From Dehalococcoidia bacterium (GTDB taxonomy: Bacteria > Chloroflexota > Dehalococcoidia > DSTF01 > JALHUB01): 64,000 bases of DNA. The stretch is taken from assembly GCA_050010555.1 (NCBI GenBank), contig JBEKKV010000003.1:16241-80240 (forward strand). Reading direction: 5' to 3'. The notes under the pieces are model-generated. The model saw only the letters and a program-made list of their open reading frames with translations, was not told the origin of the DNA and ran no database searches. Below, in pieces: positions 781-60,229 of the stretch; within the stretch, counting starts at the first letter, position 1, and each line of letters begins with the position of its first letter. The position numbers were made by a program, and so were the translations under genes.

Positions 781-1770
781 GTGAGACCATCCGGGGTCTT
801 TGTGACGATGGAGCTGCCGGGCGACGCGACGTCGCGGCTGCGCGAGGTCGCCGACGTCGACGTGTGGCCGCAAGAGGAGCCGCCGCCGCACGAGGAGCTC
901 GTCCGGCGAGTCGCGGACGCGGACGCGATACTAACGATGCTCACCGACCCCATCGACGCGGCGGTGCTGGACGCGGGCCCGCGGCTGCGCATCGTCGCGC
1001 AGATGGCGGTGGGAATCGACAACATCGACGTGGCGGCGGCGACGGAGCGCGGCATCCTGGTGACGAACACGCCTGACGTCCTGACGGAGGCGACGGCGGA
1101 CCTGGCCTTTGCGCTGCTGCTCGCGGCGGCGCGTCGCGTCGTCGAAGGCGACCGGCTGACGCGCACGGGCGGCTGGAAGAGCTGGCACCCGTCGTTCTTG
1201 CTGGGGCAGGAGGTGCACGGCGCCACGCTCGGCATCGTCGGCTTCGGCGCGATCGGGCAGGCGATGGCGCGACGCGCCCGCGGCTTCGAGATGCGCATCC
1301 TCTACCACTCGCGGACGCGGCGACCGGAAGCGGAGGCGGCGCTCGGCGCGGAGTACGCGGAGCTGGAGCGACTGCTACGGGAGTCGGACTTCGTCAGCCT
1401 GCACGTGCCGCTGACGCCGGAGACGCGGCGGCTCATCGGCGAGCGGGAGCTGGCGCTGATGAAGCCGACGGCGGTACTGGTGAACGCGGCGCGCGGAGCC
1501 GTCGTCGACCAGCGGGCGCTGTACGTCGCGCTCAAGGAGCGTCGGATCACAGCGGCCGGGCTCGACGTGGCGGAGACGGAGCCGATCCCGCCGGACGAGC
1601 CGCTGCTCACGCTGGACAACGTCGTCATCACGCCGCACATCGGCAGCGCCGGCGTCGCGACGAGGCGCAAGATGGCGGAGATGGCGGTCGAGAGCATTTT
1701 GCAGGCCCTGCGAGGCGAGGCGCCGTCGCACTGCGTCAATCCGGAGGCGCTGGCACGCCGAAAACGCTGA
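781..1770 (+). CDS. D-isomer-specific 2-hydroxyacid dehydrogenase (glyoxylate/hydroxypyruvate reductase, GhrB-like)
   Basis: Conserved 'GIVGFGAIG' NAD-binding fingerprint, catalytic region and 'ITPHIGSA'. The N-terminus '[13 protein letters not shown]' aligns with GhrB 'MKPSVILYKALPDD' when started at GTG 781. An alternative ATG start lies at 808. Confidence 0.8.
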
Positions 1771-6654: not shown

Positions 6655-7743
6655 ATGAAGGCAGCCGTCTTCTACGGAGCGAACCAGCCGCTCGCCATCG
6701 AAGAGGTCGATATTGCGTCGCCGAAGAGGGGCGAAGTACTCGTCAAGATCGCCGCTTCCGGACTGTGCCACACGGACCTCCATTTCATGGAAGGCTTCTT
6801 CCCCTGGCCGGCGCCGGCCGTGCTCGGCCACGAAGCCGCCGGCGTCGTCGAACAGGTCGGCGAGGGCGTGAACAGCGTCCAGCCGGGCGACCACGTCGTC
6901 CTCTCGTCCGCGCCTTCGTGCGGCGTCTGCCGCTACTGCGTGGCCGGCAAGCCCTATCTCTGCACCGCCGCCGCCGGATCGCATCAGATGAGGGACGGCA
7001 CCAGCCGCCTGGCCCTCCACGACGACGGCAAGCCCCTATTCCACTTCCTCGGCGTCTCCTCTTTCGCCGAATACGCGGTCGTCTCGGAGCTGGCGATGGC
7101 GAAGGTGCGCGACGATGCTCCGCTGCAAAGCGTTAGCCTCGTCGGCTGCGCCGTCGCGACGGGCGTCGGCGCGGTCCTCTACACGGCGGGCGTCACAGCG
7201 GGCAAGAGCGTCGCTGTTTTCGGCTGCGGCGGCGTCGGGCTGAACGTGGTTCAGGGGGCGAACCTGGTCGGCGCCTGCCCGATCATTGCCATCGACACGA
7301 AAGACGAGAAGCTGGCGCTGGCGAAGCAGTTCGGCGCCACGCACGTCGTGAATCCGGCGAAGGAGCATCCCGTATTGAAGGTCCACGAGATCACCGGCGG
7401 CGGCGCGGACTTCGCCTTCGAAGCCATCGGCGACGTGGACGTGCTCGGCCAGGCGTTCGACTCGCTGGACCGCGGCGGCATGGCGGTCATGGCCGGCGTG
7501 CCGCCTTTCGGCTCGAAGTACGCCGTCGACACAATGAACCTCTTCAACGACAAGACCCTCCGCGGCTGCGTCCTCGGCTCCGTGAACATTCGCCGCGACT
7601 TCCCGATGCTGGTCGACCTGTATATGGCGAAGCGGCTAAAGCTGGACGAACTGATGACGCGGACGTTCCCGCTGGAAGCGATCAACGAGGCGTTCGAGCT
7701 GGTAAAACGGGGAGAGGTGGCGCGCGCCGTCGTGACGTTCTAG
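6655..7743 (+). CDS. Zinc-dependent alcohol dehydrogenase (class III/medium-chain family)
   Basis: 'GLCHTDLH', 'GHEAAGVVEQVGEGV', structural-zinc Cys cluster 'CGVCRYCVAGKPYLC' and a GxGxxG cofactor site. GGGAGGG lies upstream of the ATG. Confidence 0.8.
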   Translation: MKAAVFYGANQPLAIEEVDIASPKRGEVLVKIAASGLCHTDLHFMEGFFPWPAPAVLGHEAAGVVEQVGEGVNSVQPGDHVVLSSAPSCGVCRYCVAGKPYLCTAAAGSHQMRDGTSRLALHDDGKPLFHFLGVSSFAEYAVVSELAMAKVRDDAPLQSVSLVGCAVATGVGAVLYTAGVTAGKSVAVFGCGGVGLNVVQGANLVGACPIIAIDTKDEKLALAKQFGATHVVNPAKEHPVLKVHEITGGGADFAFEAIGDVDVLGQAFDSLDRGGMAVMAGVPPFGSKYAVDTMNLFNDKTLRGCVLGSVNIRRDFPMLVDLYMAKRLKLDELMTRTFPLEAINEAFELVKRGEVARAVVTF

Positions 7744-7766
7744 ACTGAGCGCCAGAGGTGGCGAAA

Positions 7767-8057
7767 ATGGAGGTCCGTCGCTTCATGCTCACCGTGCCCG
7801 ACGAGCGCAGCCGACCGCAGCCCGGCGAGGTGCTTCTTGCTGAACGCTGGCAGCCGAAGCTGGCGGAGAGCGGGCCTCAGCAGGGCAACCGCTTTCGGAT
7901 CGTCCTCCTGAGCCAGCCGGCGCCGGCCTCCGCGCACGTGTCGTCGCCGAACGTCGCCGTCCTTACGCCGTCACATCCAATCGAGACGCACACCCGGGTG
8001 AGCGAGCCGCCGCTGGTCGTTCTTGCCACCGGCGCGTCGTCGAAGGCGCGAAAGTAG
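7767..8057 (+). CDS. Hypothetical protein (96 aa)
   Basis: AGGTGG lies 6 nt upstream of the ATG. GC3 is strongly biased as in neighbouring genes. No recognisable domain. Confidence 0.35.
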   Translation: MEVRRFMLTVPDERSRPQPGEVLLAERWQPKLAESGPQQGNRFRIVLLSQPAPASAHVSSPNVAVLTPSHPIETHTRVSEPPLVVLATGASSKARK

Positions 8058-52428: not shown

Positions 52429-53085
52429 TCAAGGCGCGTAATAGACGTCCACGGGTACCCAATCGAGGTAGTAGCTGCGGCTGCTGCAGCCGCCGCCAGA
52501 GCAGTTACAAGTGAGCCGGACGCGGAAGTTGGCGCTGCTCAGTTCGTCGATGGTCCAGCTATGACCCCACGTATCGGCGGAACCGCCGAGAAGCGCCGTA
52601 TGCTCCGTCGTGCTTTTGACGGAGTCAGAGTAGGGCGCGGTCCACGTGCTGCCGCCGTCCCACGATAGCTCAACGGACATGCTGGTGGCGTCGCTCATCG
52701 AGTCCAGCCACCAGTCCAGGCGCACTTCGATCCCATTTACCGTGCAGCCACCGGGAACACCGACGTTGTAGTCGTAGAAGCGGTGGCGGTCGCCCGGGCC
52801 GTTGACGTTGCTGGCGTAGCCGCCGCCATCCGCATAGGCGTTGGTCGGATTCAGCTCGAAGCCGTCGCCGTTGCCGCCGGTGTCCGCCGCGTTGGCCGAC
52901 GGATCAAGCAAGCCGGTGCTGCTAGACCGGCAGAAGGACGCGGCGCTGGTGAAGGTGTTGCCGGAGTTGTCGGCCTGGTCGGAAGACAAGCCGAGGCCCT
53001 TCCCCGGGGCACCAGCCGTCAGACCGGTGCCCGCAAGGGCGAGCGCCAGAGCGATGAGCATTCCGGGACGGACGAGCATAGGCAT
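52429..53085 (-). CDS. Secreted protein with a SipW-cognate-type signal peptide (TasA/camelysin-like N-terminal region) and a Cys-rich C-terminus
   Basis: Signal peptide 'MLIALALALAGTGLTAGA' followed by 'DNSGNTFTSAASF', which is the NTF[TA][SA] motif conserved after SipW cleavage sites. GAAGGGAAGG RBS. Confidence 0.5.
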   Translation of the reverse strand: MPMLVRPGMLIALALALAGTGLTAGAPGKGLGLSSDQADNSGNTFTSAASFCRSSSTGLLDPSANAADTGGNGDGFELNPTNAYADGGGYASNVNGPGDRHRFYDYNVGVPGGCTVNGIEVRLDWWLDSMSDATSMSVELSWDGGSTWTAPYSDSVKSTTEHTALLGGSADTWGHSWTIDELSSANFRVRLTCNCSGGGCSSRSYYLDWVPVDVYYAP

Positions 53086-53168
53086 CGCCTTCCCTTCACG
53101 CTACGACCCACAGCTCCAGGCAACCGCCCCGGCCATCAGCGTGGAGGCGAACAGGAGCTTCGCCCGGT

Positions 53169-53741
53169 CTAGCATTGAGGCTCCTCGCTGAAGTATGGAC
53201 GCGGCGCGCCCTCCTTCCACGTTTGCCACAGGACGATTCCGGCTAGCAGCACCGCTGGGATGAAGAGGAGGAAGGTACGGCCGACGGGTCCGCGGGCGAA
53301 ATGCACAAGGTAGCCTGCCCAGGGGATGCTGAAGACGATCCGATCGCCGGGGCCATAGAGGGCCACCGGCGGCGAGTCTGGCTCCTTATTGGCGTCGCCG
53401 CGAGTGATGAACTTGCGCGTGCCGTCGCTGGTATCGATTCCAATGACGCGGTGCAGAATTGGGCTGGCGTTGGCGGACCTCTTAATGGCGACGATGTCGC
53501 CAACCTTGATCGCGTCGGGCTGGATCTTTCTGGTGATGCCGATGCTGCCGGTGCGCAAAGCCGAGCCCATGCTGCCGCCGTAGATGACGTAAGCGCGGTA
53601 GCCAAAGAGGGCGAGAATCGAGGGGACGACAAGCAGGACGATGATGGCCAGCGCCGCGACCAGGTACGCCCAGCCGGCAAGGGCGAGGCCCTTGCTCAGC
53701 GGGACAAGTCGTCGGTGCAGGTCAGGGAACCAGCGTGGCAT
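53169..53741 (-). CDS. sipW: Signal peptidase I, SipW/archaeal-eukaryotic (S26B) type
   Basis: N-terminal TM helix. 'VIYGGSMGSAL' box with the catalytic Ser. 'DIVAIKR', 'ILHRVIGI' (catalytic His) and a C-terminal TM. 190 aa. Confidence 0.75.
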   Translation of the reverse strand: MPRWFPDLHRRLVPLSKGLALAGWAYLVAALAIIVLLVVPSILALFGYRAYVIYGGSMGSALRTGSIGITRKIQPDAIKVGDIVAIKRSANASPILHRVIGIDTSDGTRKFITRGDANKEPDSPPVALYGPGDRIVFSIPWAGYLVHFARGPVGRTFLLFIPAVLLAGIVLWQTWKEGAPRPYFSEEPQC

Positions 53742-53772
53742 CCTTACCTCCAGCCCCTTGCCCAGGCCTCTC

Positions 53773-54327
53773 CTACGGGTTGTTCGTCGTCTGCTCCGCT
53801 GCGAACGTGAACGTCGCGGTCGTGGAAGCGCTTTCCGGTCCTACGGCGTTCGACGGGAGCGTCACCTTGAAGCACAGGTCCTCGCTGCTGCTCGCATCCA
53901 GCACTCGGTCGCCGGCGTCGCCGCCTGTCTGCGGGTCGCCGATGGCGCCATCCGCGAGCGATCCGCTGTAGAGTGTTGTGCCGTCGAACGTTGCGCAGTC
54001 GGTGCCCTTCTCCTTGATGACCAGCGTCAGAGCATCGCGAAGGTTCTTGGTGTCGACGTTCGTAGCGACGGTCGTCATCGCATAGCGAAGCTGGAGCGAG
54101 CCGTCGTTAGAGATGGTCAGTTGGTCAGTCACGGTATCGCCGGGCGCCATGTTGCTCATCGTGATGAACGTATCGGCCGGGTTCGTGCTGATCTCTACGC
54201 TGCCGCTGGTGAACGTGTTGCTGCCGTTGTCGACGCTCTGAGTGAAGAGCGAAAGTCCTCCTCCGAGGCTTACGCAGGCGGCGAGCGTGCTGATGACTAT
54301 CATGCTGATGAGAATTCGCTTAATCAT
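53773..54327 (-). CDS. TasA/camelysin (peptidase M73)-family secreted protein with a SipW-cognate signal peptide
   Basis: 'MIKRILISMIVISTLAACVSLGGG' then 'VDNGSNTFTSGSVEI', comparable to TasA 'ATFASGTLDL' and CalY 'NNTFAAGTLDL'. GGAGAGGGGG RBS. First gene of the minus-strand operon. Confidence 0.6.
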   Translation of the reverse strand: MIKRILISMIVISTLAACVSLGGGLSLFTQSVDNGSNTFTSGSVEISTNPADTFITMSNMAPGDTVTDQLTISNDGSLQLRYAMTTVATNVDTKNLRDALTLVIKEKGTDCATFDGTTLYSGSLADGAIGDPQTGGDAGDRVLDASSSEDLCFKVTLPSNAVGPESASTTATFTFAAEQTTNNP

Positions 54328-55474: not shown

Positions 55475-55574
55475 CGTTTCTCCACCTTGATCAACTTCTG
55501 TTGGGATTATACATCGGGGGGAAGCGAGGTTCAATGAAGGCAGCGATTGCGGCCGACGGAATGGACGGATCGAG

Positions 55575-55650
55575 GGTGCGCCCGGCGGGATTCGAACCCA
55601 CGGCCTGTCGCCCGAGGCGACCGCTCTATCCGACCGGAGGGGACCCAGCC
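55575..55650 (-). pseudogene. Degenerate tRNA-like remnant sharing an exact 32-nt 3' end with the adjacent Arg-like tRNA
   Basis: 55575-55606 is identical to 55692-55723, covering the CC discriminator, acceptor 3' strand, T-arm and start of the variable loop. The upstream part keeps a D-loop-like GGATAGAGC, but the anticodon loop is only 5 nt and there is no matching 5' acceptor strand. Confidence 0.4.
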
Positions 55651-55690
55651 GCGCCGGGGCACGGGTCTCTGTCGCTAAGCTATCGGTCGA

Positions 55691-55767
55691 TGGTGCGCCC
55701 GGCGGGATTCGAACCCACGGCCTCAGCCTCCGCAGGGCTGCGCTCTATCCAGCTGAGCTACGAGCGC
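55691..55767 (-). tRNA. tRNA-Arg-like; the anticodon reads GCG, which is atypical
   Basis: Complete cloverleaf with 7-bp acceptor, D-arm GCTC/GAGC, anticodon stem CAGCC/GGCTG with loop CUGCGGA, T-arm GTGGG-TTCGAAT-CCCGC and encoded CCA. The body closely resembles bacterial tRNA-Arg. Confidence 0.7.
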
Positions 55768-55821: not shown

Positions 55822-55907
55822 TGGTGCCGAAGGTGGGATTTGAACCCACACGCCCTTACGGACACTACGCCCTGAACGTAGCGCGTCTGCCATTCCGCCA
55901 CTTCGGC
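55822..55907 (-). tRNA. tRNA-Leu (anticodon CAG)
   Basis: 86 nt with a long variable arm. Anticodon stem CTACG/CGTAG with loop UUCAGGG. T-loop TTCAAAT. CCA encoded. Confidence 0.9.
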
Positions 55908-55917
55908 AAGGCCTGCA

Positions 55918-55994
55918 TGGTGGGCGGTACAGGGCTCGAACCTGTGACCTCTTCCGTGTGAAGGAAGCGCTCGTACCAACTGAGCTAACCGCCC
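55918..55994 (-). tRNA. tRNA-Val (anticodon CAC)
   Basis: 77 nt. Acceptor GGGCGGT/ACCGCCC. Anticodon stem CTTCC/GGAAG with loop UUCACAC. T-loop TTCGAGC. CCA encoded. Confidence 0.9.
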
Positions 55995-56095
55995 GCTCCC
56001 GTTCACGATTCTATCCAACGAGGAGAGGGCCTGTCAACCGAAAAACCTCGATGACGAGGTTTGGCCGACGAAGGATCCGATTTGGCCTGCGTCGC

Positions 56096-57317: not shown

Positions 57318-57572
57318 CTATGCCTGATCCAGCCTAGATTTCAACCACTCCCGGCCTTTGCCGGTCTTGAGAAAGCGCTCCCTAGCGTGCGCTTCGGACT
57401 CGGAGTCGTACGACTCCTGATAGATTACTTCGAAAGGCCTATTGCCGGAAGACCAGGCCCCTCTGTGCCCTCGATTGTGCTCCGCAAGGCGTTCACTTAC
57501 TGATCTAGAAGTAAATCCGACGTAGTGTTTCTCGTTGCGGAGACTTCGCAAGATATAGACAGCAAAAGGCAT
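57318..57572 (-). CDS. GIY-YIG nuclease-superfamily protein (UPF0213/YhbQ-like)
   Basis: 'VYILRSLRNEKHYVGFTSRSVSERLAEHN' GIY-YIG core. 84 aa. GGGAAGG RBS. Confidence 0.8.
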   Translation of the reverse strand: MPFAVYILRSLRNEKHYVGFTSRSVSERLAEHNRGHRGAWSSGNRPFEVIYQESYDSESEAHARERFLKTGKGREWLKSRLDQA

Positions 57573-57684
57573 CGGCCTTCCCGCGGGATTTGAATCCGCC
57601 AGAGGCTGACAGGCTCCCCGACCAAAGGCTGGCGCCAGGTCGCCTTTGGCGACAGGCCCCTGCCCGCCACCGCATCGATACCAC
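57573..57684 (-). other. Structured, inverted-repeat-rich intergenic segment between tRNA-Met and the GIY-YIG gene (tRNA-like fragment or 5'-leader)
   Basis: Contains GTCGCC-nnn-GGCGAC and GCCAG...CTGGC inverted repeats. It also has a T-arm-like GGCGGATTCAAATCCCGC with a UUCAAAU loop, but no complete cloverleaf can be drawn. Confidence 0.25.
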
Positions 57685-57760
57685 TGGTGGCAGCGGAGGG
57701 ATTTGAACCCCCGACCAAGGGCTTATGAGTCCCCTGCTCTACCGACTGAGCTACGCTGCC
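57685..57760 (-). tRNA. tRNA-Met (anticodon CAT); elongator-type G1-C72, could alternatively be tRNA-Ile2 (lysidine)
   Basis: 76 nt. Anticodon loop CUCAUAA. T-arm GGGGG-TTCAAAT-CCCTC. CCA encoded. Confidence 0.85.
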
Positions 57761-57829: not shown

Positions 57830-58246
57830 TTACGCTGCCGGCGTCACCTCCGAAGTGCAGTATGCGCACCGGCGCGCTTCGGCTGGTATGTCGCTCAGAC
57901 ACTCGGGGCACTTGCGGACGGTCGGGTCCGGCGGCGGCTCTTTTCGCGAGCGCGCCAGATAAGCGTTCAGCGGCACGACGATCAGGAAGAAGACCACCGC
58001 GCCTATCATCACGAAGGTGATCGTTTTGTTGATGAAGTCGCCGTAGCGGAAGGTGCTGTTGTGGACCGTGAAGGCCAGGACGGAGAAGTCCTGCTGGCCA
58101 CCGATGGCCGCGATCAGCGGCGTCACGAAGTCCTGGACCAACGCCGTGACCACCGCGCCGAACGCTGCGCCGACCACAACCGCTATGGCAAGATCGACTA
58201 CGTTGCCCCTGAGCAAGAACGCCTTGAAGTCGTTGATGAGTTTCAT
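57830..58246 (-). CDS. mscL: Large-conductance mechanosensitive channel MscL with a C-terminal CxxC...CxxC tail
   Basis: 'MKLINDFKAFLLRGNVVDLAIAVVVGAAFGAVV' TM1 signature. Start is Met52 of the listed ORF with AAGGAGGG RBS. The C-terminus is 'CPECLSDIPAEARRCAYC'. Confidence 0.85.
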   Translation of the reverse strand: MKLINDFKAFLLRGNVVDLAIAVVVGAAFGAVVTALVQDFVTPLIAAIGGQQDFSVLAFTVHNSTFRYGDFINKTITFVMIGAVVFFLIVVPLNAYLARSRKEPPPDPTVRKCPECLSDIPAEARRCAYCTSEVTPAA

Positions 58247-58369
58247 GTTCTCCCTCCTTGGAGAATGTGCCGGCCAGCGCCGGCAGCGCCTTAACGACTG
58301 GATCCGCTGGCCGGGCTCGGCGGCAGGCGCAGCAGCGTCACTTGAGACGGCATTGAGGCCCGGCCTACA

Positions 58370-60229
58370 ATGAGTATACCAATGATCGCGAACAAGCAAC
58401 CCTTAATCGAGCGCGTAGGCGCGCTGCCGAACAAGCCCGGCGTCTACATCTTCCGTAGCGAAGATGGGCGCGTCATATACGTCGGGAAGGCGGCGTCGCT
58501 GCGCAGTCGCGTGCGCTCGTACTTCGGCTCGCCGCGGAGCATGGAGCCGAAGGTGCGGGCGCTCGCGTCGAGCATTGCCGAGTTCGACTACATCGTCACG
58601 AATACGGCGCAGGAGGCGCTGCACCTGGAGGCGACGCTGGTCAAACGCCATCAGCCCGTCTTCAACGTGCGCCTGAAGGACGACAAGCACTACCCGTACC
58701 TGAAGATCGACGTGCAGAACAAGTGGCCGCGGGTCGAAATTACGCGGCGGATCGAAAACGACGGCGGACGCTACTTCGGGCCATATGCCAGCGCCAGCTC
58801 CGTGCGCCGGACGCTCGACGTGGTGAAGCGGCTCTTCCCCTGGCGACCCTGCACCGAGGAGGTGACCGGAGGCCGGCCCCGGCCCTGCCTGGACTTCTTC
58901 ATCGGCCGCTGCATCGCGCCCTGCTCCGGCGCCTGCTCGGAGGCCGAGTACGACGAGGTGATCCGGCAGGTCATCCTCTTCCTCGAAGGGCGCACGGAGA
59001 ACGTGCTGCGGGCGCTGCGGGCGCAGATGGACGAGGCGTCGCGGAACATGCAGTACGAGCGCGCGGCGATCCTGCGAGACCAGATTCGGGCTATCGAGAA
59101 CGTGTCGGAGGCGCAGGTGACAGCGTACGCGCGGCCGACGGACGAAGACGTCTTCGGGATGGCGCGGTCGGACGGCGAAGCGGTGGCGCAGGTGCTGTTC
59201 GTCCGCGGCACGAAGATGATCGGCGGCGATCACTTCCCGCTCGACGGCGCGAAGGGCGAGCCCGACGCGGAGGTGATGAACGGCTTCCTCAAACAGTTCT
59301 ACGAGTCGTCGACATACGTCCCGCGCACGGTCCTGCTGCCGCTGGAGATACCGGAGACGGCGGAGATCGAGGAGTGGCTTTCGGAGCGACGCGGTGGCCG
59401 GGTCAAGCTGGTGACGCCGAGGCGCGGCAACAAGCGCCGTCTGATTGCGATGGCGACGGAGAACGCCCGCGAGGCGCTGGAGGTAGCACGGCTGCGCTGG
59501 CTGACGGACACGGGCAAGACGCGCCAGGCGCTGGAGGAGCTCCAGGAGGAGCTAAACCTGCCCGCCCTGCCGAATCGCATCGAGTGCTACGACATCTCCG
59601 ACATCATGGGCGCGCATCCGGTTGGCAGCATGGTCGTTTTCATCGGCGGCCGGCCGCGGCGCGCGGAGTACCGTCGCTTTCGGATCAAGAGCGTCGAAGG
59701 CGCGAACGACGTGGCGATGATGGCGGAAGTGCTGCGGCGACGCTTCAAGCGCGCGGCGCAGGCGGTAGAGGCGCAGGAGTCGGCGCAGGCCGAAGGCTGG
59801 GGCGCCCTGCCGGACCTGCTAATCGTCGACGGCGGCAAGGCGCAGCTCAACGCGGCGCTCGACGTACTTCGGGAGACGGGCGCGCCGTTCATCCCGGCCG
59901 CGGGGCTGGCGAAACAGCAGGAGGAGCTTTATGTAAAGGACGTGTCGGAGCCGATTGTGCTGTCGCGCACGTCGCAGGCGCTCTACCTGCTGCAACGCGT
60001 CCGAGACGAGGCGCATCGGTTTGCAATCACGTACCATCGCAGCGTGCGGCAGAAGGCCGGGACGCGCTCGGCGCTCGACGCGATACCCGGCGTGGGGCCG
60101 AAGCGGAAGCAGGCGCTGCTGCGGAAGTTCGGCTCGGTGCGGGAGATACGGGAGGCGAGCGTCGACGAGATTGCGTCGACGGTGGGGTTCACGCGATCGC
60201 TGGCGGAGCGGGTGAAGGAATACCTCTAG
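58370..60229 (+). CDS. uvrC: Excinuclease ABC subunit C
   Basis: N-terminal GIY-YIG ('GVYIFRSEDGRVIYVGKA'), UvrBC-interaction region, RNase H-like endonuclease domain and C-terminal (HhH)2. 619 aa. Confidence 0.9.
   Translation: MSIPMIANKQPLIERVGALPNKPGVYIFRSEDGRVIYVGKAASLRSRVRSYFGSPRSMEPKVRALASSIAEFDYIVTNTAQEALHLEATLVKRHQPVFNVRLKDDKHYPYLKIDVQNKWPRVEITRRIENDGGRYFGPYASASSVRRTLDVVKRLFPWRPCTEEVTGGRPRPCLDFFIGRCIAPCSGACSEAEYDEVIRQVILFLEGRTENVLRALRAQMDEASRNMQYERAAILRDQIRAIENVSEAQVTAYARPTDEDVFGMARSDGEAVAQVLFVRGTKMIGGDHFPLDGAKGEPDAEVMNGFLKQFYESSTYVPRTVLLPLEIPETAEIEEWLSERRGGRVKLVTPRRGNKRRLIAMATENAREALEVARLRWLTDTGKTRQALEELQEELNLPALPNRIECYDISDIMGAHPVGSMVVFIGGRPRRAEYRRFRIKSVEGANDVAMMAEVLRRRFKRAAQAVEAQESAQAEGWGALPDLLIVDGGKAQLNAALDVLRETGAPFIPAAGLAKQQEELYVKDVSEPIVLSRTSQALYLLQRVRDEAHRFAITYHRSVRQKAGTRSALDAIPGVGPKRKQALLRKFGSVREIREASVDEIASTVGFTRSLAERVKEYL

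Follow-up and report, generated by a model that had tools for sequence, protein, structure and literature searches.

The tRNA-Arg(GCG) gene in a 64 kb stretch of the genome of a Dehalococcoidia bacterium (Chloroflexota), here called the window, is followed by a 117-nt unit that is a partial copy of the same gene with a hairpin instead of the anticodon arm. The unit is probably a footprint, without an ORF, of a GIY-YIG element that nests in tRNA genes, and its copy number would change through unequal recombination. Hairpin-substituted tRNA pseudo-copies are apparently a widespread and undescribed kind of repeat. The window unit has the features that define them: it is a same-strand partial tRNA copy, it carries the hairpin arm, and a GIY-YIG ORF of the associated family is present in the genome.

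tRNA-Arg(GCG), conserved in the relatives L001-L005 and L011, closes a Val-Leu-Arg tRNA operon. The tRNAs of the locus lie on the minus strand, and the locus is composed of the following features:

56008-56037, minus strand: predicted sigma-70-like promoter of the Val-Leu-Arg operon
55918-55994, minus strand: tRNA-Val(CAC), without a repeat unit in the window (ARAGORN)
55822-55907, minus strand: tRNA-Leu(CAG) (ARAGORN)
55691-55767, minus strand: tRNA-Arg(GCG), functional, with encoded CCA (ARAGORN; Rfam tRNA, 67.2 bits)
55574-55690, minus strand: 117-nt unit, a tRNA-Arg pseudo-copy with a hairpin instead of the anticodon arm (cmscan; orthologues in L001)
55674-55689, minus strand: degenerate 5' acceptor strand and D-stem 5' strand of the unit, CGACCGA TAGCTTAGC (cmscan)
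55632-55673, minus strand: D-loop insertion in the pseudo-copy, 42 nt (42-47 nt in the cmscan alignment)
55622-55631, minus strand: GGATAGAGCG, the D-loop 3' part, D-stem 3' strand and position 26 (same as in the real tRNA-Arg)
55607-55621, minus strand: hairpin GTCGC-CTCGG-GCGAC, alternatively GTCGCC-TCG-GGCGAC (family signature)
55575-55606, minus strand: 3' part of the unit, with variable loop, T-arm, acceptor 3' strand, discriminator base and CC (identity to 55692-55723)

The preliminary description had reported that 55575-55606 is identical to 55692-55723, and a search of the window with a shuffle control bears this out. The 32-mer GGTGCGCCCGGCGGGATTCGAACCCACGGCCT occurs at exactly these two places, and 100 shuffles gave 0 matches, so the duplicated match is not a chance expectation. 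The copies are separated by 85 nt, in agreement with the spacing of about 85 bp first given, and this spacer is itself tRNA-derived. A longer repeat of 37 nt with one mismatch spans 55570-55606 and 55687-55723. The exact repeat corresponds to tRNA positions 44-75 and includes C74 and C75 but not A76; the pseudo-copy reads CCC where the tRNA reads CCA, and identity picks up again in the 4-nt trailer TCGA. The shared segment had been said to take in the whole CCA; the identity stands, but the exact repeat stops at C75. The same arrangement, identical at every base of this stretch, is found in L202 (Ga0427942_004730), an independently made JGI assembly, and the duplication is thus not an assembly artefact.

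The tRNA-like remnant is bigger than was originally proposed. It is aligned by cmscan end to end with the tRNA model over 55578-55689, at 20.9 bits (E=0.057 in a 351-nt search), which is below the RF00005 cut-off of 29. The D-loop motif and the 5-nt loop pointed out earlier are both present, but the 5' acceptor strand thought to be missing is aligned by cmscan as a degenerate strand. The acceptor sequences CGACCGA and CGGGCGC form 5 of 7 pairs, and only in a register shifted by one; the unit has no 7-bp acceptor stem. Nor does it have a 7-nt anticodon loop on a 5-bp stem, as its loop is of 5 nt (CTCGG), or of 3 nt on a 6-bp stem. The possibility that the upstream copy is a real tRNA, raised at the outset, found no backing: the 117-nt unit was called neither by ARAGORN nor by Rfam at the gathering threshold. 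The hairpin at 55607-55621 occupies the exact place of the 17-nt anticodon arm and is an exact match to the scan pattern with the core CGCC-N3-GGCG. GC-rich D-loop or T-loop insertions comparable to that of the unit were also seen at the loci L116, L162, L165, L167 and L177.

The number of Arg units among close relatives is 0, 1 or 4. L001, a related genome with about 95% nucleotide identity, carries four tandem Arg units (4.3 x 116 nt) orthologous to the window unit and, after tRNA-Val, six 64-nt units with the same hairpin (6.5 x 64 nt). No Arg unit was found in L002, L003 or L004. Val units number 0 in the window, 1 in L011 and 6 in L001. Both L001 arrays have the same composition, namely tRNA positions 44-76, a linker, and GAGCG-GTCGCC-TSA-GGCGAC. 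The Arg units of L001 alternate (u1=u3, u2=u4), a pattern that indicates an array probably amplified as a dimer by unequal exchange and not built by serial insertion. The window unit would be a solo copy older than the split of the window and L001 lineages. ARAGORN called two of the four L001 Arg units as a 95-nt tRNA-Arg(CCG). These calls were rejected, since by eye the anticodon falls inside the D-loop insertion and Rfam lends no support, with no tRNA match to the L001 units at E<=1.

The window contains a second locus with a hairpin-marked tRNA copy, where a small GIY-YIG gene is also found:

57685-57760, minus strand: tRNA-Met(CAT), host of the window's GIY-YIG element (ARAGORN; Rfam)
57573-57684, minus strand: tRNA-Met-derived pseudo-copy, adjoining the ORF start codon (sequence comparison)
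57318-57572, minus strand: stand-alone GIY-YIG nuclease gene, 84 aa (Pfam PF01541)

The ORF at 57318-57572 scores 51.5 bits with PF01541 (E=1.2e-13), for which the cut-off is 22.6. Residues Y6, Y17, G19, R28, H32, N33 and E65 are invariant in an alignment of 12 diverse family members, and we take their roles to be catalytic by analogy with I-TevI. Judged by its sequence, the 84-aa nuclease looks active. The ORF has no promoter-like site of its own and lies downstream of the tRNA-Met promoter. The Met pseudo-copy is composed of the anticodon-stem 5' strand, a hairpin for the loop, the variable loop, and a T-arm interrupted by 19 inserted nt; the hairpin, GTCGCC-AAA-GGCGAC, is at 57638-57653. 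Homologous pseudo-copies carry GTCGCC-TGA-GGCGAC in L002 and TTCGCC-GCA-GGCGAA in L004. The ORF is present at tRNA-Met in the window and L202 and absent from this locus in L001 and L002, a distribution that fits mobility. It lies 1.6 kb from the Arg unit; the large GIY-YIG gene nearby is uvrC.

Starting from protein homologues, an approach unbiased as to the hairpin, ten contexts could be evaluated (window/L202, L204, L208, L211, L212, L214, L215, L218, L219 and L220). In all ten, the ORF abuts a real same-strand tRNA and a pseudo-tRNA piece with an NNCGCC-N3-GGCGNN hairpin, and the distance from ORF to hairpin is no more than about 200 nt. Of 47 distinct ORFs, about 30 stop inside tRNA or tRNA-like sequence, and 11 have their stop at offset 7-8 from the tRNA start, where T8-A9-G10 supplies the codon. 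The proteins are 77-95 aa long and consist of the GIY-YIG domain alone. Clustered at 90% identity, up to 8,000 scored candidates gave at least 7,137 clusters of family proteins, and most of the named homologues come from Patescibacteria. Recent intragenomic spread was considered at L105, where one contig holds three ORFs; these are just 45-55% identical and give no direct sign of recent intragenomic transposition. Carriage by phages or plasmids was likewise set aside. The plasmid database gave no match, the phage database gave two weak Staphylococcus phage matches, and the one motif match on a viral contig is in non-tRNA sequence and looks like chance.

A metagenome scan with the 21-mer GCGGTCGCCTNNGGCGACAGG gave at least 138 matches in at least 120 loci. 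Among the matches listed, 86 of 138 (~62%) have a same-strand tRNA within 450 nt or a GIY-YIG ORF within 600 nt; the 71 tRNA-context loci among them range from 33 to 70% GC, and the other matches listed resemble chance occurrences in GC-rich DNA (median 68% GC). All recorded neighbouring tRNAs and ORFs share the strand of the hairpin. Where the real tRNA is upstream, as in the window, the 34 nt after the hairpin fit its 3' end at 29-33 of 34 positions (17 of the matches listed). Where it is downstream, the 27 nt before the hairpin fit its 5' end at 24-27 of 27 (16 of the matches listed). Hairpin-marked copies of Arg, Val, Ile, Ala, Pro, His, Asp and other tRNAs were found in hosts of 33-70% GC, with a hairpin sequence that is nearly invariant over this range. 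Only about 40% of the listed tRNA-context matches have an ORF within 600 nt, a figure that may be an underestimate because many contigs are short.

These observations, of unit anatomy, a shared hairpin, linkage to tRNAs and GIY-YIG ORFs and variable copy number, can be brought together in a model whose nuclease and recombination steps are inferred. Each unit keeps part of the neighbouring tRNA and has one arm swapped for a GC-rich CGCC-N3-GGCG palindrome; the Arg unit keeps the D-loop 3' part and the segment from position 44 to CC, with the anticodon arm swapped. The units would belong to selfish elements built around a GIY-YIG gene of ~80 aa within the tRNA locus. The tRNA promoter apparently drives the ORF, which starts just past the tRNA or pseudo-tRNA and often ends at the TAG of positions 8-10. 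The nuclease is proposed to break DNA in or beside tRNA genes or at palindromes. Repair recombination between the real tRNA and a hairpin-marked copy would then yield an intact tRNA with 5'-half or 3'-half pseudo-copies at its flanks, and unequal recombination between identical segments of 26-37 nt would let arrays grow or shrink. No GIY-YIG ORF lies between tRNA-Arg and its unit, and L001, despite its arrays, has none within the 13 kb examined, so the nuclease would have acted in trans or in the past. The real tRNA stays intact in each element, so that a simple homing cycle, in which the empty site is cleaved and the filled site is immune, is not obviously applicable. Also counting against the model are the near-invariance of the hairpin across hosts of 33% to 70% GC, and the 84-aa protein, which has no separate DNA-binding domain. 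Homing endonucleases of the superfamily, such as SegB and I-TevI, are known to have a separate DNA-binding domain; SegB is much longer than 84 aa and has an additional DNA-binding region.

On a wider reading, which is possible but less likely than not, the units are footprints of an undescribed class of tRNA-gene-specific mobile elements, each with a ~80-aa GIY-YIG gene and one or more CGCC-N3-GGCG palindromes. The cassette would borrow the tRNA promoter, use the near-universal T8-A9-G10 as its stop, and in every case leave a single intact tRNA with hairpin-capped half copies on its flanks. The dimeric nuclease would act at the palindrome, and the recombination it induces would give rise to the tandem half-tRNA arrays as a by-product. 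Such an element would be abundant in Patescibacteria and occasional in other phyla, as in this Chloroflexota genome.

The units could instead be functional RNAs, serving either as RNase P/RNase Z punctuation for a nested mRNA or as decoys for tRNA enzymes. This reading is compatible with the element model, but gives a solo unit a function of its own; we regard it as unlikely. The Arg unit lies within the tRNA operon, and no terminator-like site was seen between it and tRNA-Arg, so the unit is probably co-transcribed with the operon, as far as its sequence can tell. Swapped arms have near-equal lengths (in L204, a 15-nt D-arm is replaced by a 15-nt hairpin), and the tRNA-like outline is thereby kept. 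Helices of acceptor-like, hairpin and T-arm type are possible in the Val unit, and some L172 units score above the Rfam tRNA cut-off. The window unit, on the other side, has no 5' acceptor strand able to pair, and its folding does not surpass that of shuffles (z of +1.48 and +0.15); for the Val unit and the Met pseudo-copy, folding is mildly better than in shuffles (-1.7 and -1.9). The poor folding of the window unit has no bearing, for or against, on a role at the DNA level. The outermost hairpin pair differs on both sides, being T-A in L004 and G-C in the window, which suits an RNA helix, but a dimeric DNA-binding site equally predicts two-sided changes in a palindrome. Reverse-complement loop triplets are about equal in number among the matches listed (TGA 27 vs TCA 24; TTA 8 vs TAA 5), as expected of an orientation-free DNA palindrome and not of a strand-specific RNA loop.

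Rfam searches at gathering and relaxed thresholds of the window, L001 and 12 metagenome loci pointed to no known RNA family; they returned tRNA and noise only, the latter far below cut-offs (weak YrlA, mascRNA, permuted tmRNA and Tymo tRNA-like matches). An archaeal-type D-loop intron had come to mind because of the GCG anticodon and the short insertion. This was rejected, as the genome is a Chloroflexota MAG with bacterial-type neighbours and sigma-70-like promoters, inspection by eye showed no bulge-helix-bulge, and the loop at the anticodon is not long enough.

The hairpin could also be an independent REP/MITE-like palindrome that prefers tRNA-like sequence, with the GIY-YIG gene as a separate passenger. 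Hairpins with the same core are inserted in D-loops and T-loops of pseudo-copies (L116, L162, L167, L177 and L211), and many hairpin units have no ORF nearby. Such a palindrome is nevertheless improbable given the ten protein-first contexts, each with its hairpin close to the ORF. In the window, the motif is confined to the two tRNA loci, besides two 1-mismatch matches elsewhere, and no REP-associated transposase was seen. Two further origins for the hairpin were examined and discarded. It does not derive from the anticodon stem of a neighbouring tRNA, as GTCGC/GCGAC occurs only in some tRNA-Val(GAC) genes (L105) and not in the Arg or Val tRNA of the window. The loop dinucleotide bears no consistent relation to the host anticodon and is not a leftover of it.

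An ordinary tandem duplication of tRNA-Arg followed by neutral decay, with neither a mobile element nor a nuclease, appears still less plausible. The unit aligns with the tRNA over its full length, no ORF adjoins it, and slippage or unequal crossover can alter repeat number without a special enzyme. Neutral decay leaves unaccounted for the same 15-21-nt hairpin across many tRNA isotypes in hosts of 33 to 70% GC, and it does not suit a unit in which the 3' 32 nt and GGATAGAGCG are intact and the arm between them is cleanly replaced. The decayed tandem duplication offered as one possibility in the preliminary description comes closer than an att scar but is incomplete: the copy is not decaying at random, as a specific hairpin replaces the anticodon arm.

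The reading that description had favoured, an attL/attR scar from a tyrosine-integrase island or prophage that entered the 3' end of tRNA-Arg and has since been lost or has collapsed, is largely refuted, and we give it very little credence. Integration into tRNA genes is usually recognised by a duplicated tRNA 3' end and is a documented source of partial tRNAs (PMC9897764), and the repeat does begin in the variable loop/T-arm region and run through the 3' end. Against this, no integrase or recombinase domain was found in the ten flanking ORFs, and the 64 kb window holds no third copy of the 32-mer, even at up to 3 mismatches, that could act as a distal attR. The spacer is tRNA-derived, with a D-arm and a hairpin exactly at the position of the anticodon arm. 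In L001 and L011 the same hairpin comes after tRNA-Val, it marks dozens of other tRNAs as well, and no cargo separates the units in the arrays of 4 and 6. Downstream of the tRNA, the sipW/tasA-like block keeps its synteny in L002 and L011, relatives that lack the duplication and carry a single 32-mer, so no island was gained or lost there. The island sought at the orthologous tRNA-Arg was absent from L001-L005 and L011, where only short units and conserved downstream genes were found. The broader suggestion of a mobile-element footprint at a tRNA gene does fit the evidence, with the small GIY-YIG gene as its likely agent.

Single-domain GIY-YIG proteins of similar size are found in UPF0213/COG2827 (e.g., PDB 1ywl, EF2693); 1ywl was the only PDB sequence match, and the similarity is marginal (E=0.008). 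To our knowledge, UPF0213 proteins have no established function and no link to tRNA genes.

The nearest characterised analogue of the proposed element is SegB, a free-standing homing endonuclease of T4/T6-like phages. According to the portions of PMC13096335 considered here, SegB is a phage GIY-YIG endonuclease that cuts inside tRNA genes, at a motif read here as matching the T-loop; with homologous recombination, it generates unstable tandem (segmental) amplification of the tRNA region, and its homologues are statistically enriched within 1 kb of tRNAs of many isotypes. The likeness lies in a GIY-YIG gene among tRNA genes, since the ORFs of all ten protein-first contexts abut same-strand tRNAs. 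In contrast to the phage protein, the family described here is chromosomal, has only a catalytic domain of ~80 aa without a separate specificity domain of the SegB type, and is encoded by an ORF nested in tRNA sequence with its stop at T8-A9-G10. SegB amplifies whole functional tRNAs in the same portions of that paper, in which no such hairpin was found, whereas the copies described here are partial and carry a conserved hairpin substitution.

Two other systems share features with the units. In integrase att systems, as here, an intact tRNA is kept and a displaced partial copy with an exact shared segment lies nearby (PMC9897764). The present loci differ in having no integrase, cargo or island, in forming arrays of up to 6 units, and in including, besides 3'-half copies downstream, 5'-half copies upstream of tRNAs, with a fixed hairpin at the junction. 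Insertions in rRNA genes of CPR bacteria contain small GIY-YIG ORFs and are not group I or II introns (PMC11270868). They resemble the element in host group (Patescibacteria) and in the placement of small GIY-YIG ORFs in structural-RNA genes, but they sit in 16S and 23S rRNA genes and not in tRNA genes; the word tRNA does not occur in that paper, and searching it by terms turned up no hairpin-substituted pseudo-copies. Full-text searches of open-access papers turned up no account of small GIY-YIG genes accompanied by tRNA halves that carry the hairpin.

If the model is correct, hairpin-marked units would join integrase att sites and CRISPR spacers as a third, common source of bacterial partial tRNA genes. 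Small orphan GIY-YIG genes annotated as "putative endonuclease", of which there are thousands, would gain a testable genomic role, and the SegB principle of nuclease-driven tandem amplification at tRNA genes would extend from phages to bacterial chromosomes. The element would also be a compact natural system tying together a nuclease, a palindrome and a structural-RNA gene, in which two questions become directly testable: the means by which a GIY-YIG enzyme of a single domain recognises its target, and the way in which a selfish element can occupy an essential gene yet leave it working. Array copy number differs between genomes of about 95% identity, and tandem arrays could thus act as strain markers. 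The units would also be worth recognising by annotators, as ARAGORN miscalls some of them as tRNA-Arg(CCG), tRNA-Ser(TGA), tRNA-SeC or tRNA-Stop.

The tRNA genes of this region, called by ARAGORN and Rfam, are as follows.
57685-57760, minus strand: tRNA-Met(CAT)
55918-55994, minus strand: tRNA-Val(CAC)
55822-55907, minus strand: tRNA-Leu(CAG)
55691-55767, minus strand: tRNA-Arg(GCG)

A repeat search confirmed an exact duplication of the 3' end of tRNA-Arg. The 32-mer of 55692-55723, tRNA positions 44-75, recurs at 55575-55606, and no third copy is present in the 64 kb with up to three mismatches allowed (0 in 100 shuffles). In its full extent, the repeat is 37 nt long with one mismatch. The mismatch falls at A76 of the CCA, a C in the copy, and a matching 4-nt trailer, TCGA, comes after it. 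The preliminary description had the repeat include the CCA; the CC is shared and the A is not. An independent JGI assembly (L202) is identical in sequence here.

The copy belongs to the Arg unit (55574-55690, minus strand, 117 nt), for which neither ARAGORN nor Rfam at the gathering threshold calls a tRNA. With cmscan at a relaxed threshold, 55578-55689 can be aligned end to end with the tRNA model; the score is 20.9 bits, below the cut-off of 29. The alignment gives the unit these parts.
Degenerate 5' acceptor strand
TAGCTTAGC, the 5' side of the D-stem
Insertion of 42-47 nt, after TAGCTTAGC and before GGATAGAGCG
GGATAGAGCG, between the insertion and the GTCGC/GCGAC stem
GTCGC/GCGAC stem with a 5-nt loop
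Variable loop, T-arm, and acceptor 3' strand, all intact

The 5-nt loop first described is thus upheld, and the 5' acceptor strand that was reported missing is present in degenerate form. The anticodon of the real tRNA-Arg (55691-55767), GCG, is conserved clade-wide (window, L001-L005, L011). The usual bacterial anticodon is ACG, read as ICG after TadA editing, and ACG is carried by L208, a more distant, Chloroflexota-like contig.

Orthologous loci were retrieved from Chloroflexota metagenome-assembled genomes (MAGs) through the isocitrate/isopropylmalate dehydrogenase gene adjoining tRNA-Val. The closest relative, L001 (CAWJHZ010000007.1), has ~95% identity to the window in flanking DNA, and L011, L002, L003/L004, and L005 are increasingly distant, in that sequence. 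The order Met, dehydrogenase, Val-Leu-Arg is kept in all of them, and the units are polymorphic in presence and copy number. The 32-mer occurs once each in L002, L003, L004, and L011, twice in the window, and five times in L001, where tRNA-Arg is followed by four tandem 116-nt units. These are orthologous to the window's unit, which is therefore older than the split of the two lineages. Two variants alternate among them (u1=u3, u2=u4), a pattern that points to a dimer duplicated by unequal exchange. In L001, tRNA-Val(CAC) is also followed by six 64-nt units (6.5 tandem units, 7361-7775), of which L011 has one and the window and L002 none. The L001 Val unit has a possible D-arm-less tRNA-like fold, with GGTGGT pairing with ACCGCC.

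The Arg and Val units are built alike, from positions 44-76 of the tRNA beside them, a short linker, a D-loop/D-stem piece of that tRNA ending in GAGCG, and the hairpin GTCGCC-TSA-GGCGAC. Each L001 Val unit is composed of the last 33 nt of the tRNA, a linker, and this same hairpin. The hairpin occupies the exact place of the 17-nt anticodon arm, with the variable loop AGG next to it. The real anticodon stems of tRNA-Arg (CAGCC/GGCTG) and tRNA-Val (CTTCC/GGAAG) are unrelated to it, so a sequence-conserved palindrome that is foreign to both tRNAs is common to both repeats. With up to one mismatch, the motif occurs four times in the window against 0.11 expected. Two occurrences are exact, one in the Arg unit and one at 57638-57653, directly downstream of tRNA-Met.

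Two origins had been proposed for the duplication. Random decay of a tandem tRNA copy is disfavored because it leaves unexplained an identical foreign hairpin in the Arg and Val repeats. The other, an integrase scar with attL and attR copies, is wrong; it fails on the same hairpin, and the genes 3' of tRNA-Arg are syntenic among relatives, so that this tRNA has neither acquired nor shed an island. L001, L002, and L011 share these genes in synteny, namely a small ORF, a camelysin/TasA-like gene, and a SipW-like signal peptidase, and all three keep the block 52429-54327 (minus strand) of the window.
53169-53741, minus strand: SipW-like signal peptidase, part of the block
53773-54327, minus strand: camelysin/TasA-like protein, part of the block
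Within 52429-54327, minus strand: 218-aa ORF with no family match

Given this conservation, the SipW/TasA part of a region that had looked accessory is core to the clade. An MscL-containing ORF at 57830-58399 (minus strand) is listed with 189 aa and called with 138 aa in L202. It has a zinc-ribbon-like C-terminal tail with weak DZR/UPF0547 matches and is probably the gene initially labelled a B-box membrane protein.

In place of decay or a scar, we favor, with somewhat better than even confidence, the reading that the Arg unit is a member of a tRNA-linked family and owes its origin to it. The family comprises hairpin-substituted tRNA pseudo-copies and ~80-aa GIY-YIG ORFs at tRNA loci. The duplication itself is minor, and its interest would lie in being the local trace of a large tRNA-gene-associated element family.

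The window has such an ORF at tRNA-Met. Its tRNA-Met-to-dehydrogenase interval is ~300 nt longer than that of L001, which measures only 77 nt.
57573-57684, minus strand: tRNA-Met-derived pseudo-copy with hairpin, between tRNA-Met and the ORF
57318-57572, minus strand: ORF of an 84-aa stand-alone GIY-YIG domain (Pfam E=1.2e-13), abutting the Met pseudo-copy

The pseudo-copy contains the anticodon-stem 5' strand, GTCGCC-AAA-GGCGAC for the loop, the variable loop, and a T-arm that an insertion interrupts. Promoter-like sites in this stretch lie 5' of tRNA-Met, 5' of tRNA-Val, and 5' of the ORF after the Arg unit, which leaves the GIY-YIG ORF without a promoter-like site of its own. Relatives carry other forms of the Met pseudo-copy, all ORF-less. 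In L004, a full copy lies 3' of the real tRNA, and in it the D-arm is replaced by CCCGCC-TGA-GGCGGG and the anticodon loop by TTCGCC-GCA-GGCGAA, and L002, L006, and L001 have 5' Met pieces upstream of the real tRNA-Met. At the outer end of the anticodon-loop hairpin, L004 has a T-A pair where the window and L002 have G-C, so the palindrome was kept through two-sided changes.

Metagenome contigs were scanned for GCGGTCGCCTNNGGCGACAGG, which a functional tRNA is not expected to match because the loop is too short. Among the matches listed (138 in 120 loci), 86 have a same-strand ARAGORN tRNA no more than 450 nt away or a GIY-YIG ORF no more than 600 nt away. The remaining listed matches have a median GC content of 68% and look like chance matches in GC-rich DNA; the 71 listed tRNA-context loci span 33-70% GC (median 47%), and the palindrome is almost invariant among hosts of such widely differing composition. 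All neighbour tRNAs and ORFs recorded for the listed matches share the hairpin's strand. Where the real tRNA is upstream, as in the window, the 34 nt 3' of the hairpin match its 3' end at 29-33 of 34 positions (17 listed matches). Where it is downstream, the 27 nt 5' of the hairpin match its 5' end at 24-27 of 27 (16 listed matches). Hosts among the listed matches include tRNAs for Val, Ile, Ala, Pro, His, Arg, Leu, and Asp, and tRNA-Met and tRNA-Ser host sister hairpins. Tandem arrays occur in both forms, as 5'-half plus hairpin upstream of the tRNA (L094, L106, L161, L201) and as hairpin plus 3'-half downstream of it (L099, L124, L172, L188). Two layouts recur. Written with segments A (positions 1-26), B (anticodon arm), and C (positions 44-76), they are A-hairpin-C'(truncated)-linker-[A-B-C real tRNA]-ORF-(D-loop piece)-hairpin-C, and A-hairpin-C'-ORF-[A-B-C real tRNA].

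Homologues of the 84-aa protein were also located on contigs independently of the hairpin. In all 10 evaluable contexts (one more runs to the contig edge), the ORF abuts a same-strand real tRNA and is accompanied by at least one hairpin-bearing pseudo-tRNA piece. The three parts, small GIY-YIG ORF, real tRNA, and hairpin-substituted half copy, are tightly associated. The hairpins have the form NNCGCC-N3-GGCGNN (GTCGCC, CCCGCC, or TCCGCC), sometimes together with CCAGCC-CAA-GGCTGG. They replace the D-arm in L204 and the anticodon arm in the window, L211, L212, L218, and L220; L211 also has one in the T-loop. About 30 of 47 distinct ORFs end within tRNA or tRNA-like sequence. The stop codon is the conserved T8-A9-G10, at offset 7-8 from the tRNA start, in 11 of the 47, the TAG of GGTTAGAGCG directly 5' of the hairpin in ~13 others, and a TGA in the hairpin loop in 2. 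Where the stop codon lies inside the real tRNA, cutting by RNase P at the 5' end of that tRNA would strip it from the mRNA. One reading frame is used throughout the ORF/tRNA junctions compared (Ile, Val, and Ala hosts). ORFs that lack their own stop and read in a fixed frame into the downstream real tRNA, ending at the TAG of T8-A9-G10, are seen in L107, L163/L212, L168, L184, L149, L211, L218, and L220.

A profile search gave at least 7,137 clusters at 90% identity (E<=1e-8, among 8,000 candidates scored). Catalytic-type residues are invariant in the family alignment, and the named members among the matches listed are nearly all Patescibacteria. The plasmid and phage collections searched contain essentially no members of it.

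The detailed mechanism is proposed with less confidence than membership. The ORF and its palindrome(s) would form a selfish cassette resident within tRNA loci, whose predicted nuclease would break tRNA genes or the palindrome. One possibility is that the 84-aa single-domain enzyme works on the palindrome as a dimer, in the manner of some GIY-YIG restriction enzymes. Recombinational repair that pairs the real tRNA with the tRNA-like copy of the element could then yield both observed layouts: a single exchange in segment A would give A-hairpin-C'-ORF-A-B-C, and one in segment C would give A-B-C-ORF-d-hairpin-C, with d denoting the D-loop piece. The tRNA would always be regenerated intact, as with integrases, but through homology rather than site-specific recombination. 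Arrays would be gained and lost as identical 26-37-nt segments are repaired out of register or undergo unequal sister exchange, and the window's Arg unit would be an ORF-less unit of such an element. Loop triplets of the listed tRNA-context hairpins are TGA (27) and TCA (24), which are reverse complements, and likewise TTA (8) and TAA (5). These near-equal numbers suggest that the palindrome centre can sit either way round. Together with the window's Arg unit folding no better than shuffled sequence, this weakly favors DNA over RNA as the form in which the hairpin acts.

The closest experimental precedent is SegB, a phage GIY-YIG endonuclease enriched beside tRNA genes, which cleaves within them at RAWTSGAAC (PMC13096335); we read this motif as the complement of the T-loop consensus. 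When SegB nuclease acts together with UvsX and UvsY, the tRNA region undergoes tandem amplification that is unstable (PMC13096335). Partial tRNA genes are documented to arise from integration of genetic elements and from CRISPR spacers (PMC9897764), and the Arg unit fits neither. GIY-YIG ORFs are reported in non-intron insertions of CPR rRNA genes (PMC11270868), and Patescibacteria are inferred donors of GIY-YIG genes to other bacteria (PMC12455944); the passages of both articles that a term search picked out mention neither tRNA loci nor half copies marked by a hairpin. No Rfam family covers the hairpin-tRNA units, and no published account was found in open-access full texts, though an earlier report is possible. 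The family, large, regular, and tRNA-gene-associated, appears not to have been characterised before. Free-standing GIY-YIG endonuclease genes tied to tRNA genes and nuclease-linked tandem amplification are known, and we rate the hairpin-unit family as a variant of such systems.

Several individual loci show further arrangements. In L162 (1-480), a frameshifted GIY-YIG ORF, likely a pseudogene, lies between two full-length hairpin-tRNA copies with two additional D-loop hairpins, TCCGCC-ACA-GGCGGA and CCCGCC-NCC-GGCGGG. L105, a 9.1-kb contig, carries three GIY-YIG ORFs that have diverged to 45-55% identity and occupy three neighbouring tRNA sites within ~3 kb, so several element lineages coexist in one low-GC genome. 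In L212 (1100-1510, the same as L163), an element at the tRNA-Ile(GAT) of the 16S-23S spacer follows immediately on the 16S rRNA 3' end. L208 has a ~400-nt tandem duplication (1411-1900) of the ORF 3' end, a promoter-like spacer, and the 5' half of tRNA-Arg(ACG), and an inverted tRNA-Arg pseudo-copy (1056-1135, minus strand) with TCCGCC-ACA-GGCGGA that ARAGORN calls tRNA-Thr(TGT). With the hairpin loop taken as anticodon, ARAGORN also calls pseudo-copies in L083, L092, L097, L172, and L204 as tRNA-Stop(TTA), tRNA-Ser(TGA), or tRNA-SeC(TCA), a misreading that is a likely source of spurious suppressor and SeC tRNA annotations in MAGs.
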